DNA from: Spirochaetia bacterium
GTDB taxonomy: Bacteria; Spirochaetota; Spirochaetia; SZUA-6; Bin103
DNA: 64,000 nucleotides
Direction: 5' to 3'
Assembly (NCBI GenBank): GCA_965203905.1
Contig: CBDBDQ010000005.1
Location: 2,592,001-2,656,000, forward strand
This document shows positions 26,343-30,978 of this stretch, piece by piece (within the stretch, counting starts at the first letter, position 1; every line of letters starts with the position of its first letter). A model generated the notes under the pieces. The model did not search any database. It was not told the DNA's origin and saw only the letters and a program-made list of their open reading frames with translations. Both the position numbers and the translations under genes were made by a program.

Positions 26343-26460
26343 CGCGACCGGTAATGTACTGCGCCGCCGCGGTTTTGGTAAGCCCGCACGGGTCGTGGCG
26401 AGCCTGGAACGAGGCCACGAATTCGGTATATTGCTGACTCGGGGCGAGGGACGAGGGACG

Positions 26461-27801
26461 ATGGCGAGCAACATCCTGGATTCGATAGACCGGCTCAAGC
26501 AGGAGCTCGACGAGTTGCGGCCGCTGCCGCCGGAGGTTACCGGCCGGGTGGAGCAGAAGCTGAGGATCGAGTCCAACTACCACTCCAATGCACTCGAGGG
26601 AAATACCCTTACGCTCGGCGAGACCCGCAGCCTGGTACTGCACGGCCTCACGGCGCGCGGCAAGCCGATGCGCGAGCACCTCGACATCGAAGGCTACGAC
26701 CGCGCGGTCAAGGAACTCTCACGGAGGGCGAGCGAAGACCAGCGGCTGAACGAGACGTTCATCCTCAATCTGCATCGGGTGCTGTTGAAGGAACCGTACG
26801 AAGTGGAAACATCCGCTCCAGACGGCAGAAACACGAGACGGCCCATCGCCATCGGCGCGTACAAGACCACGCCCAACAACATCGTGACCTCCACCGGGGA
26901 GACCTACTACTTCACGCCGCCCGAACAGGTGCCGCGGTCAATGAGCGCCCTGCTCGACTGGTACCATGCGCGAGAAGACGAGGGCGAGCATCCGATCATC
27001 ATCGCGGCAATCTTTCACTACCGCTTCGTCCGAATCCATCCGTTCGACGACGGCAACGGCCGCATGGCGCGCCTGCTGATGAACCGGATCCTGCTCGACC
27101 ACGGCTACCCCTTGGCGATCGTGCGGAGGGACGCCCGCGACCGCTACCTGCAGGAGCTGGAGCGGGCCGACCAGACCGAGGATCCCGGCCAGTTCATCGA
27201 CTACATCGCATCCTGCTGCGAATACCCGCTGAATCTCTACCTGCGCGCCGCCCGCGGCGAGTCGATCGAGGACAGCGATGAGATCGATCGCGACATAGCC
27301 CGGTTCCGGCAGGCGCTGGTGGCAGGGACGGGAGCGCACGATCAAGTGGACCTCCGGCACTACATGGCGGCGGTGGTGCTGCCGTTCCATGCCTACTGTC
27401 GTACGAAGTTTCGCGCCCTCACTGCGGACCTGTTCAGCCCGGGCGGGGATACGCCGCCACGGGTCACCGGCCGCAACGCCGACGGGCGCAACTTTCGCCT
27501 CGCTCGCGTCAGCGAAGCCGACAAGGTGCCGCAACGAGCTTCAGACGTAGCCATCGAATTCGGTTTCTCATCCGTGGATTTTCAAAATACCGATTGGACG
27601 ATCAGCACGGTCATCAAGAACACCGTGAGGAGAGGCGAGTACAACTGGGAGCTGATGATCTTCTATGTTGCGCCGGCCGCGGACGACTTCGCGATTCGGT
27701 TGGACAGCGATGATCCGGACGAGTTGAAGACGGCGTTCAACCGGCTGCTGCGAGACATGATGGGGACCATGAAGCTGTGGGATTCCCAGTCCAAGAACTG
27801 A
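26461..27801 (+). CDS. Fic family AMPylase with N-terminal autoinhibitory motif and C-terminal extension
   Basis: HPFDDGNGRMAR; SNALEGN inhibitory motif. Confidence 0.9.
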   Translation: MASNILDSIDRLKQELDELRPLPPEVTGRVEQKLRIESNYHSNALEGNTLTLGETRSLVLHGLTARGKPMREHLDIEGYDRAVKELSRRASEDQRLNETFILNLHRVLLKEPYEVETSAPDGRNTRRPIAIGAYKTTPNNIVTSTGETYYFTPPEQVPRSMSALLDWYHAREDEGEHPIIIAAIFHYRFVRIHPFDDGNGRMARLLMNRILLDHGYPLAIVRRDARDRYLQELERADQTEDPGQFIDYIASCCEYPLNLYLRAARGESIEDSDEIDRDIARFRQALVAGTGAHDQVDLRHYMAAVVLPFHAYCRTKFRALTADLFSPGGDTPPRVTGRNADGRNFRLARVSEADKVPQRASDVAIEFGFSSVDFQNTDWTISTVIKNTVRRGEYNWELMIFYVAPAADDFAIRLDSDDPDELKTAFNRLLRDMMGTMKLWDSQSKN

Positions 27802-27842: not shown

Positions 27843-29000
27843 TTACTGCGCCAGCGCCCCTTGACCGAGGCGCCGTACGAAGTCGGCGGCGGGGATTATG
27901 TCGATACCGTCCTCGGTGCGGCGGGCGCTTGGCTCCAGACAGACGACGATGCGCAGGCGTACACCGGGATGCTCCTCAAGCAGCGTGCGCAGCCCGCGCA
28001 GATGATCACGGGTGATGCGGGCACTAGCCTTTGCCTCCATAGCAACCTCCATGTCGCCGAGCACGAAGTCCACCTCGATGCCGCTCGGCAGTCGCCAGTA
28101 GGTGAGTTCGAGGTCCCACTCCTGGTACTCGATGCAGGCGGACAGCTCGTGAAAGACCCAGTTCTCGAACGCCTTCCCGTAGAGCTGCGCTCCCGGGGCC
28201 AACTCGCCGCGACGGCTCAGACGGTTCACCACCCCGACGTCGGCGAAGTAGAACTTCGGAGCACCGATCAGGCGGCGCTTGCGGCGCCGGCGGTACGCGC
28301 TCAGCCAGCGACCGAGCAAGCTGTCGACCAGGATTTCGAAGTAGGCCTTGGCGGTGGGGCTGGACACGCCGCACTCGCGTGCGATGTTGGAGAAGTTGAC
28401 CATCTCTCCATCGCTGAGCGCGGCAGCATCCAGGAACCCGGAGAACGCCGGCAGATTGCGCACCAGCCCCTCCGCCGCGACCTCTTCGCGCAGGTAATCG
28501 GCGACGTAGGCGTCGAGCAGGCGGCGCGGACGGGCGGCCTGGTAGATGCGCGGCAGGTAGCCGTGGTTCAGCATCCGATTCAGGTCGAAGGCCGTGCCCA
28601 ACTCGCCGGCGGTGAAGCCGCGCAGCTCGTAGCGCACGGCCCTTCCCCCGAGCAGATTGGCCGCGCCACGGCGCACCTTGCGGGCGCTTGAACCGCACAA
28701 TGCGAACTGAAATCCGCGATTCTCGATCAGCCAGTGCACCTCGTCGAGCAGCGCGGGCACCTTCTGAACCTCGTCGATGACGACCTGTCGTCCGGCAGGC
28801 GCGGTCGCCGATGCCAATTCCTGGCGCAGGTACTCGGGATGCTCGAGATAGCGCCGGAACACGTCGCTTTGCAGCAGATCGACCCAGTGCGCATCGGGGT
28901 AGCTCTGCCGGAGCAGCGTGCTCTTGCCAGCCTGCCGCGGCCCCCACAGAAAGAAGCTCTCGCTTCCAGCCGTCGGCAGCAGCAGGGATCTGTTGAACAT
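27843..29000 (-). CDS. AAA_14 ATPase with DUF4143 domain
   Basis: GPRQAGKST, IDEVQK, CGSS, KFYFAD, EVDF..EAK. Confidence 0.9.
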   Translation of the reverse strand: MFNRSLLLPTAGSESFFLWGPRQAGKSTLLRQSYPDAHWVDLLQSDVFRRYLEHPEYLRQELASATAPAGRQVVIDEVQKVPALLDEVHWLIENRGFQFALCGSSARKVRRGAANLLGGRAVRYELRGFTAGELGTAFDLNRMLNHGYLPRIYQAARPRRLLDAYVADYLREEVAAEGLVRNLPAFSGFLDAAALSDGEMVNFSNIARECGVSSPTAKAYFEILVDSLLGRWLSAYRRRRKRRLIGAPKFYFADVGVVNRLSRRGELAPGAQLYGKAFENWVFHELSACIEYQEWDLELTYWRLPSGIEVDFVLGDMEVAMEAKASARITRDHLRGLRTLLEEHPGVRLRIVVCLEPSARRTEDGIDIIPAADFVRRLGQGALAQ

Positions 29001-29637: not shown

Positions 29638-30174
29638 ATGCCGACTGAACAGAACAGGCTTTACCTCTACGAGGCACTCGAACTGCGTGCAGAGTACGAT
29701 GCGCGCATCAAGACCTTGCGCGACTGCCTGCCGGAGACGCGCAGGAACCGGGACCGGCTCGGCATGTACCGCAACGAGGAGCTGCAACTTCGCGCGGCCG
29801 ACGACTTCGACGTGGCCGCGGTTCAGGAGTCGTTGCGGGCGCTGGAGCACAAGCGGCGCAAGCTCAACAACGCCATCCAGCGCGCCAACTACGCGCATAC
29901 CGTGAACGCCACCGGTGAGTTGCTCGACCTGAGCGAAGCTCTGGAGGTGCGCAAGGGTATGTCCGACCGCATCGGTGAGCTGCACACCCAGAGCGTGCAA
30001 TCCGCCTACGTGCGCGTGATCTACAAGGAAGGCCGCGACATCGTGGAGCCCAACGACGCCACCTTCGCCGCCAGCATGGCGCAACTCGAGTCGGTACGGC
30101 GGGCGTTCCGTGACCTCAACCGCGCGTTGCGCGCGGCCAGCTTCACGGTCGTGGTCGACTTCACGGACGAGTAG
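29638..30174 (+). CDS. DIP1984/DUF6847-like coiled-coil protein
   Basis: Two-fold repeat LYEALELR..IQRAN / LSEALEVR..LRAASF, typical of this family; RBS AAGGAG. Confidence 0.75.
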   Translation: MPTEQNRLYLYEALELRAEYDARIKTLRDCLPETRRNRDRLGMYRNEELQLRAADDFDVAAVQESLRALEHKRRKLNNAIQRANYAHTVNATGELLDLSEALEVRKGMSDRIGELHTQSVQSAYVRVIYKEGRDIVEPNDATFAASMAQLESVRRAFRDLNRALRAASFTVVVDFTDE

Positions 30175-30177
30175 GAC

Positions 30178-30479
30178 GCAGGGCCACTTGGTGGCGCCGG
30201 AGACCATGAAGACCGATGCAGCGGGTTCGCCTGCTGGACATGGTTTTCGGAGTAGCGGGAAGCCAGAAAAATCGAGCAGGAGACGGGGGAGTAGGTGCGA
30301 GTCTCCCGGCGACGGGAGCGTAGCCCAGTAGATTGGCGACTGCGACAGCGATGAACATAGGTTTGAAACGCCCTAGTTTCCGGTAAAGCCCGGCAGCCGG
30401 GCAGCACCTCAGCGTCACAGCGAGCACAGCCCGAAAGCGAAACAGCATCATGACTCCGAGTCTCCTGCTCTTTCTTCCT
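30178..30479 (+). ncRNA. Candidate structured ncRNA downstream of the DIP1984-like gene
   Basis: Several helices with G-U pairs, UUCG and GCGA tetraloops, an 11-bp long-range stem 30274-30284/30460-30470, and a periodic CAGC array; no credible ORF. Confidence 0.7.
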
Positions 30480-30495
30480 CGCGCCGCGAACGGTC

Positions 30496-30978
30496 TCAAC
30501 ACGGAAGGCCGCGCGGGCTCCAGCCTTCGATCAGGGCGGTCACTTCTTCGATCGTGCGATAGCAGGCGGCACGGAACTCCGGAGTGAGGCCGAGTGCGGT
30601 CACCGTGTGCTCGAATTCGTCCTCGTCGAGGACGATCGGTCGTTCGCCGGTCCGACGGGCCACGTCCAGTTCGTAGTCGGTATAGTGCAACTCGCCGTCG
30701 ACAACTTGCGCCGGGCTGGCGATGTGGACGTAGATCTCCGAGAGGGCGCCGGCGTCGTCGTAGAGCTCCAGCAGGTTGTAGGGCCGATCGAACCAGTAGC
30801 AGGCCCGGATGTCGGCCTGTGAGGCCCAGCCGCCCTTGGGCCCGCCAACGGGGTTGCCACGCCGGGAGAACGTATGCACGCCGCGGCTGTCCACCGTTTC
30901 GACCGCGCTCGTCCACCATCGCCGACGGGTGCCATCCAGGTTGAACACGACCACGTTGACTGCATCGCCCGCTCGCAT
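30496..30978 (-). CDS. DUF402 domain protein
   Basis: IYVHIASP, TDYELDV, VLDEDEF. Confidence 0.8.
   Translation of the reverse strand: MRAGDAVNVVVFNLDGTRRRWWTSAVETVDSRGVHTFSRRGNPVGGPKGGWASQADIRACYWFDRPYNLLELYDDAGALSEIYVHIASPAQVVDGELHYTDYELDVARRTGERPIVLDEDEFEHTVTALGLTPEFRAACYRTIEEVTALIEGWSPRGLPC

Follow-up and report, generated by a model that had tools for sequence, protein, structure and literature searches.

An array of eight regularly spaced AGC cores in a structured RNA next to a DIP1984/DUF6847-like protein gene: a candidate protein-binding platform

Background

The window examined here, by which we mean the whole 64,000-nucleotide stretch of DNA that was analysed, carries in one of its intergenic regions a short motif that recurs at an almost constant distance: CAGC starts at 30394, 30402, 30410, 30418, 30427 and 30443, and AAGC at 30435. 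These positions and their spacings had been listed in an initial annotation made from the letters of the sequence, and they were exact on re-reading. The same annotation proposed that the seven motifs lie mostly unpaired within a candidate RNA and serve as repeated binding sites for the subunits of a ring or filament, plausibly made of the protein encoded upstream. This raises the question of what the array belongs to, whether it is kept in related loci and what might read it.

The array has eight AGC cores in a conserved register

A further AAGC at 30386 falls on the same lattice, and the array (30386-30452, + strand) therefore consists of eight AGC cores, which start at 30387, 30395, 30403, 30411, 30419, 30428, 30436 and 30444. 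The steps between them are 8, 8, 8, 8, 9, 8 and 8 nt, and the spacers are variable in sequence and 5 nt long, with one of 6 nt. An off-lattice AGC at 30423 falls within the single 9-nt step. Thus, the array described in the initial annotation is real, but its conserved core is AGC (A-R-C across the family) and not CAGC, and the cores number eight and not seven.

Four AGC cores in a row at 8-nt spacing were found twice in the 64-kb window, both times in the array, against an expected 0.01 occurrences, and none of 100 shuffles reached two. Against the chain of eight cores, with steps of 8 or 9 nt, the longest chain in 5000 dinucleotide-preserving shuffles of the RNA had four cores (a length that 10 shuffles attained), and four was again the longest in 100 shuffles of the entire window, both strands included.

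In the last 85 nt of 62 homologous RNAs, the distances from one AGC to the next were 8 nt (95 times), 9 nt (16 times), 15-17 nt (92 times) and 24-25 nt (10 times), which indicates an 8-nt lattice in which some cores are degenerate (AAC, GAC, ACC). A profile anchored at the 3′ helix showed a conserved C at positions 0, -8, -16, -24, -33, -41, -48, -56 and -63, with an A two positions ahead of each. Arrays of this type (type A) often have just 4-6 perfect AGC cores (mean 5.19), the remaining lattice points being AAC, GAC or ACC, so that recognition of the cores would need to be loose (A-R-C). The periodicity that the initial annotation had suggested looking for in homologous loci is hence present, with its lattice conserved across the 62 RNAs, and the proposal cannot be faulted for its absence there.

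A coding or slippage origin of the array is ruled out by the non-triplet period and the unequal spacers, the two features on which the initial annotation had rested the same claim; the shuffle tests and the common register in distant homologues further uphold it. On comparative grounds, the array is best regarded as a conserved, non-coding feature that did not arise by slippage and that lies just inside the closing helix of the RNA described below.

The array lies within a structured RNA with two pseudoknots

The intergenic region at 30175-30495 holds two unrelated items, a hairpin repeat and a structured RNA. A covariance model (R1) placed the whole RNA, of about 200 nt, at 30274-30474 on the + strand with 148.9 bits, and this was its sole match in the 8-Mb genome. 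The RNA is single-copy; its identity was 88-92% in four congeneric species and 75-77% in four species belonging to a sister genus. No match to Rfam 15 was found in the window at gathering scores; at E-values up to 10, the region 30100-30600 gave two chance-level hits, neither of them on the RNA.

The structure was derived from an alignment of 39 RNAs, drawn from the 62 plus the window, none of which was more than 90% identical to another, and it consists of a consensus fold with manual additions. Overall, 85.8% of 1593 cells were paired, compared with 31-41% when the partners were slid by 1-3 columns; both-sided changes were found in 31 of the 41 pairs, and none of 500 shuffles reached the observed values. 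An all-against-all column search for more covarying pairs was swamped by phylogenetic signal and was not used.

All elements lie on the + strand. The closing helix P1 pairs its 5′ strand (30274-30284) with 30460-30470, and 9 of its 11 pairs change on both sides among the 39 homologues. Inside it, the 5′ strand of P1b (30288-30292) pairs with a 3′ strand at 30453-30457 that is likewise supported by covariation; all cells (100%) were paired and two of the five pairs were compensatory, including a GU/AC swap in the window's own lineage. P2 (30297-30324) is a hairpin with a GNRA-type loop, GCGA in the window, in which 7 of 10 pairs change on both sides. Two H-type pseudoknots follow. The first (30326-30352) is formed by stem 1, which pairs 30326-30328 with 30340-30342 (99% paired, two of three pairs compensatory), and stem 2, which pairs 30333-30337 with 30348-30352 (73% paired, four of five compensatory) and is weakened in the window by one mismatch. 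In the second (30360-30380), stem 1 pairs 30360-30362 with 30370-30372 and stem 2 pairs 30365-30368 with 30377-30380, with both-sided changes in three of three and four of four pairs, respectively. The 3′ strand of P1 is followed by a U-rich run at 30471-30476, and such a run was found in many homologues, though not in all.

A second mini-array, GCGA three times with period 6, had also been annotated at 30336, 30342 and 30348. The three copies are where they were placed, but they fall within pseudoknot 1, the homologues have a different sequence there and no such mini-array is repeated in them; it is a coincidence specific to this lineage.

As for the array itself, no conserved pair was found within it in the consensus fold of the 39 homologues, and neither this fold nor the column search revealed a partner sequence for the cores in the 5′ domain of the RNA. 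The array is G-poor (19.5% G versus 32% in the 5′ domain), and its computed pairing probability was 0.46 against 0.61 for the 5′ domain, being the lower of the two in 39 of 39 sequences. The minimum-energy fold of the window's own sequence pairs part of the array. The description of the array as mostly unpaired therefore agrees with the consensus fold, but is not fully borne out by the minimum-energy fold and by the modest difference between 0.46 and 0.61. Taken together, the RNA is predicted to have a folded 5′ domain, with one hairpin and two pseudoknots, followed by a G-poor strand of about 65 nt, the whole being closed by a long helix.

The other item in the intergenic region is a copy of a hairpin repeat of about 80 nt (30176-30262, + strand), which had 22 matches in the window's genome and is not part of the RNA family. 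It lies between the stop codon of the upstream gene and the RNA, a place from which it is absent in relatives, where the RNA starts 0-25 nt past the stop codon. The repeat was also found in some related genomes. The copy in the window ends in a U-run and could terminate transcription ahead of the RNA.

The RNA follows the gene of a 178-aa protein in many phyla

The gene upstream of the RNA (29638-30174, + strand) is an ORF for a 178-aa protein, a distant relative of the DIP1984/DUF6847 family. This gene is conserved at all loci of the genus and the sister genus, while the gene downstream of the RNA varies by locus, and in every full-length homologous locus it lies upstream of the RNA. Among the 24 genomes of the family, RNA and protein occur together in the same 10, and both are absent from the others. 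In one of these ten (G005), only the 3′ half of the RNA and the C-terminal end of the protein are left.

Two remnants were noted separately. At the locus in G005 (L016, about 1360-1610), what is left of the RNA is the array with the 3′ strand of its closing helix, directly after the C-terminal protein fragment; the same part of the RNA is left at L135 (genome G122, 1501-1625), where no protein was detected.

The protein gave 546 hits in a large protein collection, with about 60% identity in distant phyla, while a set of 1.84 billion proteins contained only 202 representatives at the 50% identity level. A genome scan, with one genome per species, returned 79 loci from Latescibacterota, Desulfobacterota, Chloroflexota, Acidobacteriota, Verrucomicrobiota, Spirochaetes, Gemmatimonadota, Nitrospinota, several candidate phyla and three archaeal lineages. 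Among the 66 loci in which the gene end and at least 100 nt downstream were present, 62 had the RNA after the protein gene, and the RNA started 0-25 nt past the stop codon in all but two of them, where the distance was 56 and 158 nt. Of the four loci with no RNA match, two have divergent copies that were recognised by eye and two are truncated. Within the bacterial class of the window, the covariance model found copies in 7 of 151 genomes.

No other neighbouring gene was conserved across the loci beyond clade-level synteny, and a cluster of ATPase-like proteins of about 380 aa was found near the gene in seven distant loci. In the window, two genes lie just upstream: one for a Fic/DOC protein (26395-27801, + strand), which matches the SoFic and PDC-S04 models, and one for an AAA_14-DUF4143 ATPase (27843-29000, - strand), which matches PDC-S01 and has a similar gene in the seven distant loci.

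The initial annotation had named the upstream protein as the plausible binder. Its co-occurrence with the RNA, the joint decay of the two and the link between protein clade and core type given below all favour it as a candidate, and on such sequence evidence it is the obvious partner of the RNA.

A second type has UUAC cores at a 7-nt pitch

Two of the seven genomes of the class with a model match, together with a locus from the first scan, share this RNA scaffold but have eight UUAC cores at a 7-nt pitch in the array. The proteins of these loci are about 33% identical to that of the window, and the second clade to which they belong is 30-45% identical to it overall. A metagenome scan with 13 proteins of this type yielded 80 loci, in 75 of which the covariance model found the RNA, always downstream of the gene and on its strand. 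The structure was 86.5% paired compared with 30-46% when slid, a paired fraction that leans towards the structure since the alignment was fitted to the model.

The distances between TAC motifs in 53 distinct arrays of this type were 7 nt (129 times), 8 nt (32 times) and 14-15 nt (29 times). The one longer step has the same place in both types, between cores three and four counted from the 3′ end. Of 110 distinct arrays, 108 showed agreement between protein clade and core type, and two were ambiguous by count; since the loci are related and fall into two clades, this is in effect a single, well-documented switch and not 108 independent events.

The two types also bear on the possibility that the partner of the cores is not the neighbouring protein but a host factor or, through intramolecular contacts, another part of the RNA. 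Both types are present within the same bacterial class, and core and pitch follow the clade of the neighbouring protein, which speaks against their being read by a host factor. We return to this possibility in the Discussion.

Some loci of the UUAC type depart from the common arrangement. At L134, an intact RNA (60.5 bits) lies beside a gene that is cut to an N-terminal frame of 84 aa (1501-1717 and 1670-1924). In the five metagenome loci L186, L187, L192, L196 and L199, the RNA (about 2235-2786) is not adjacent to the gene but lies about 850-950 nt downstream of it. A subgroup comprising L148, L152, L154, L156, L158, L166, L168, L170 and their relatives has degenerate cores 2-5; this stretch can form a short hairpin instead, so that some lineages have not retained the full set of eight sites.

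The 178-aa protein shares a fold with PDB 3kdq and may self-associate

In the AF2 model (pLDDT 87.5), the 178-aa protein folds into four long helices with small beta hairpins. Its best solved match, and the only clear one, was PDB 3kdq, of the DIP1984 family (Foldseek E 3.4e-4, TM 0.71), and VIA superposed the two with Z 13.0 and an rmsd of 2.9 Å over 152 of 178 residues. Judged by this model, the protein shares the overall fold of 3kdq, a DIP1984/DUF6847 member. The sequence scores lie around or below the curated cut-offs: Pfam PF20935 gave 26.1 bits for the ORF against a cut-off of 27, and 27.1 in a six-frame search of the genome, while NCBIfam NF038048 gave 30.2 against 70. The models of the DIP1984/DUF6847 families align with the N-terminal half of the protein only. 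A search of the PDB by sequence gave no hit with the single protein, and a profile reached 3kdq only at E 0.16.

PADLOC had no match for the protein, and no relative of it was found in IMG/VR contigs or GenBank phages. A fold search in BFVD returned only weak, high-rmsd matches to uncharacterised phage proteins. The language-model clusters nearest to the protein's own contain hypothetical proteins of 165-172 aa, about half of them from tailed phages and some with DUF6847. Papers on DUF6847, DIP1984 or PF20935 put no function or RNA partner on record.

Multimer modelling, one of the ways in which the initial annotation had thought the oligomeric state could be approached, gave a tetramer score of 0.56 versus 0.00 for the best control; in a calibration on two copies, 20 of 30 proteins whose solved structures are pairs attained this mark, as did 1 of 23 whose solved structures are single chains. 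The runs agreed in at least 89% of contacts, with a pLDDT of the partners of at least 77. In the model, one copy contacts two others via two different surfaces, as it would in a polymer or a ring. The modelling thus supports self-association of the protein, with the qualification that the tetramer was built from an alignment made for this analysis and may echo the four-chain crystal entry 3kdq. Each predicted interface uses the same residues on both partners, so that the orientation of the protomers would alternate, which is awkward with eight cores that all point in the same direction.

Parts of the region occur in RNA libraries

Four RNA libraries contain parts of the stretch. In one small metatranscriptome, contigs span 30284-30460 with 0 and 2 differences; another library covers 30057-30190 and is identical to the window; a third contains sequences related to the gene and to the 3′ portion of the RNA. 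Such contigs give no ends, strand or level, and as DNA can be present in the libraries they do not prove transcription. The contigs of one small run stop at 30284 and 30460, which form the innermost pair of P1, and an adapter lies next to 30284. This may hint at processing of the RNA at the base of P1, unproven and too thinly based, with two contigs of one run, to be taken further.

Discussion

The explanation that we favour, with moderate confidence, is that the array is the protein-binding platform of a two-part ribonucleoprotein module, in which the neighbouring protein, as an assembly of several copies, reads the eight cores. Copies of the protein would self-associate, each reading one core, and the fixed number of cores, their pitch and the one longer step would set the size and geometry of a closed RNP particle. 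The spacers would act mainly as linkers, and the folded 5′ domain would give the RNA its identity or provide a further contact. The comparison establishes the structure of the RNA, the conserved cores and their register, the linkage of gene and RNA and a core and pitch that differ between the protein clades, and the RNA occurs in RNA libraries; that the protein binds the RNA directly, with about eight protomers (or four dimers) in the particle, and that the particle has a role in the cell is what we infer.

The spacers may, on the other hand, do more than link. In the VIPR system, the subunits of a RAMP protein hold GGY cores in place and offer the NN bases to a target (10.64898/2026.04.26.720920, 10.64898/2026.04.26.720927, 10.64898/2026.10.21.760802), and the RNA described here could similarly be a noncontiguous guide, with its cores clamped by the protein and the variable spacer bases (five per unit, three in the UUAC type) pairing with a gapped DNA or RNA target. 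Fixed trinucleotides with variable bases, a pseudoknotted constant part and a self-associating partner are all parallels to what these reports give for the VIPR vrRNAs. The patchy distribution of a module common to several phyla points the same way, as does its place in the window, where it adjoins genes that match candidate defence families.

The behaviour of the spacers speaks against guiding. The divergence of the array was 0.04-0.21 per site versus 0.12-0.44 at four-fold degenerate sites of the protein gene in five groups of relatives; it stayed below the four-fold sites in all five groups, so that the spacers are not hypervariable, and it is roughly what conserved cores with nearly free spacers would give. 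In a gapped guide test against the window's own 8-Mb genome, which allowed 0-5 skipped bases, the spacers matched at 26-30 of 40 positions and controls with permuted order at 26-29, the value of 30 being probably the locus itself, and hence no match rose above the controls. There is moreover one RNA per locus and no array of guides, some arrays of the UUAC type repeat one spacer several times, the protein is not a RAMP, and no relative was found in the viral and phage collections searched (IMG/VR contigs, GenBank phages). A guide function is therefore disfavoured, and a guide of the VIPR kind seems unlikely to us. The same holds for a second system with a noncontiguous code, unrelated to VIPR, in which a helical protein that is not a RAMP would polymerise on the eight cores and 3-5 variable bases would form the gapped guide; we consider this improbable as well. 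If it were true, gapped RNA-guided recognition would be a convergent solution spread across bacteria and archaea.

The platform might also serve to restrain its own protein. The RNA could be an antidote or an autoregulator, the array soaking up the protein to curb a harmful or dose-sensitive activity, or feeding back on the mRNA of which it is a part. This would suit a self-contained module of two components with no other conserved neighbour, the patchy distribution, which suggests horizontal transfer, the position of RNA and protein gene on what would be one transcription unit, and the remnants in G005, where gene and RNA have decayed jointly. It fits poorly with a protein that does not have the fold of a known toxin and has no PADLOC match, and with an RNA that lies downstream of the gene, has no tandem array of long repeats and carries a double-pseudoknot domain that seems beyond the needs of a sponge. 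Addiction would also predict the opposite of what is seen at L134, where an intact RNA has outlived the gene. We give this possibility little weight.

Less probable still is the reading of the cores by a host factor or by contacts within the RNA. Single strands rich in A and C are commonly bound by general RNA-binding proteins, and the neighbouring protein is itself a candidate binder; but beyond the agreement between core type and protein clade, the RNA is essentially never found without the gene, and its 5′ domain offers the cores no partner sequence. Chance, replication slippage or hidden coding, in favour of which there is nothing beyond the high G+C of the region, can practically be dismissed in view of the shuffle tests, the non-triplet period, the unequal spacers and the same register in dozens of distant homologues.

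Returning to the protein-binding platform, the RNA itself is apparently undescribed, although it is widespread across many bacterial and some archaeal phyla. The literature searched (on DUF6847/DIP1984, on structured RNAs and on periodicities of 7-8 nt) held no description of the RNA or of the RNA-protein pair, while supplementary tables, including the clusters of a 2026 language-model preprint, may list it. If the explanation is true, the known structured RNAs are joined by a widespread class with two pseudoknots, present also in archaea and without an Rfam entry, and the DIP1984/DUF6847 fold, solved in 2009 without a function, gets its first functional handle in the form of an RNA partner. 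The two natural types, with AGC cores every 8 nt and UUAC cores every 7 nt on a common scaffold, would be a ready-made specificity swap for the question of how an oligomer measures the RNA.

Comparison with known systems

The logic proposed for the array, periodic cores read by a protein oligomer, is known, while the components are unrelated to those of the known examples. One of these is TRAP of Bacillus, a ring of beta-sandwich subunits that binds about 11 (G/U)AG units with spacers of 2-3 nt in the 5′ leader of the trp operon and acts by attenuation. Both RNAs have repeated trinucleotide cores with short variable spacers on a single strand, which in TRAP are read by identical subunits, the number of cores matching the size of the assembly. 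Here the core is AGC, the spacers are 5 nt long and the array lies 3′ of the gene, and the number of cores, the structure of the RNA and the fold of the protein (that of 3kdq) differ as well. The analogy drawn in the initial annotation thus holds for the logic, but not for the core, spacers, position or protein fold.

In type III toxin-antitoxin systems such as ToxIN, tandem repeats of about 34-45 nt lie upstream of the gene of an endoribonuclease toxin, which cuts them to units. A protein gene and a repetitive RNA side by side, a patchy, mobile distribution and a closed particle of fixed stoichiometry, found in ToxIN and proposed here, are the points of likeness. In our case, one structured RNA lies downstream of the gene, the only repeats are micro-repeats of 7-8 nt, and the protein has a non-nuclease fold and no PADLOC hit. 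With the DIP1984/DUF6847 family, represented by 3kdq, the predicted protein has the overall fold in common, with sequence scores at or below the curated cut-offs.

VIPR resembles the present module more closely than TRAP does, in the single-stranded tract of fixed trinucleotide cores and variable bases, in the pseudoknot of the constant part, and in the minimal locus with a small self-associating protein encoded beside the RNA, self-association being here a matter of modelling. The VIPR protein is described there as a RAMP (RRM), whereas ours has the helical fold of 3kdq, with no RAMP among the matches listed. The VIPR RNA has GGY cores at a 5-nt pitch in 9-16 units and a 3′ tail, compared with eight units of AGC at 8 nt or UUAC at 7 nt here, where the structured domain is on the 5′ side and a helix closes the tract. 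The variable bases of VIPR are hypervariable, with several guides per locus, in contrast to slowly drifting spacers and one RNA per locus and genome here. VIPR is mostly viral; among IMG/VR contigs and GenBank phages, no relative of the present protein was found. Since the protein fold, the core and pitch, and hypervariability all fail to correspond, the module is not a member of VIPR. Coming after VIPR, it asks whether arrays of fixed cores and variable gaps are a general design of ribonucleoproteins, and whether some of them guide.
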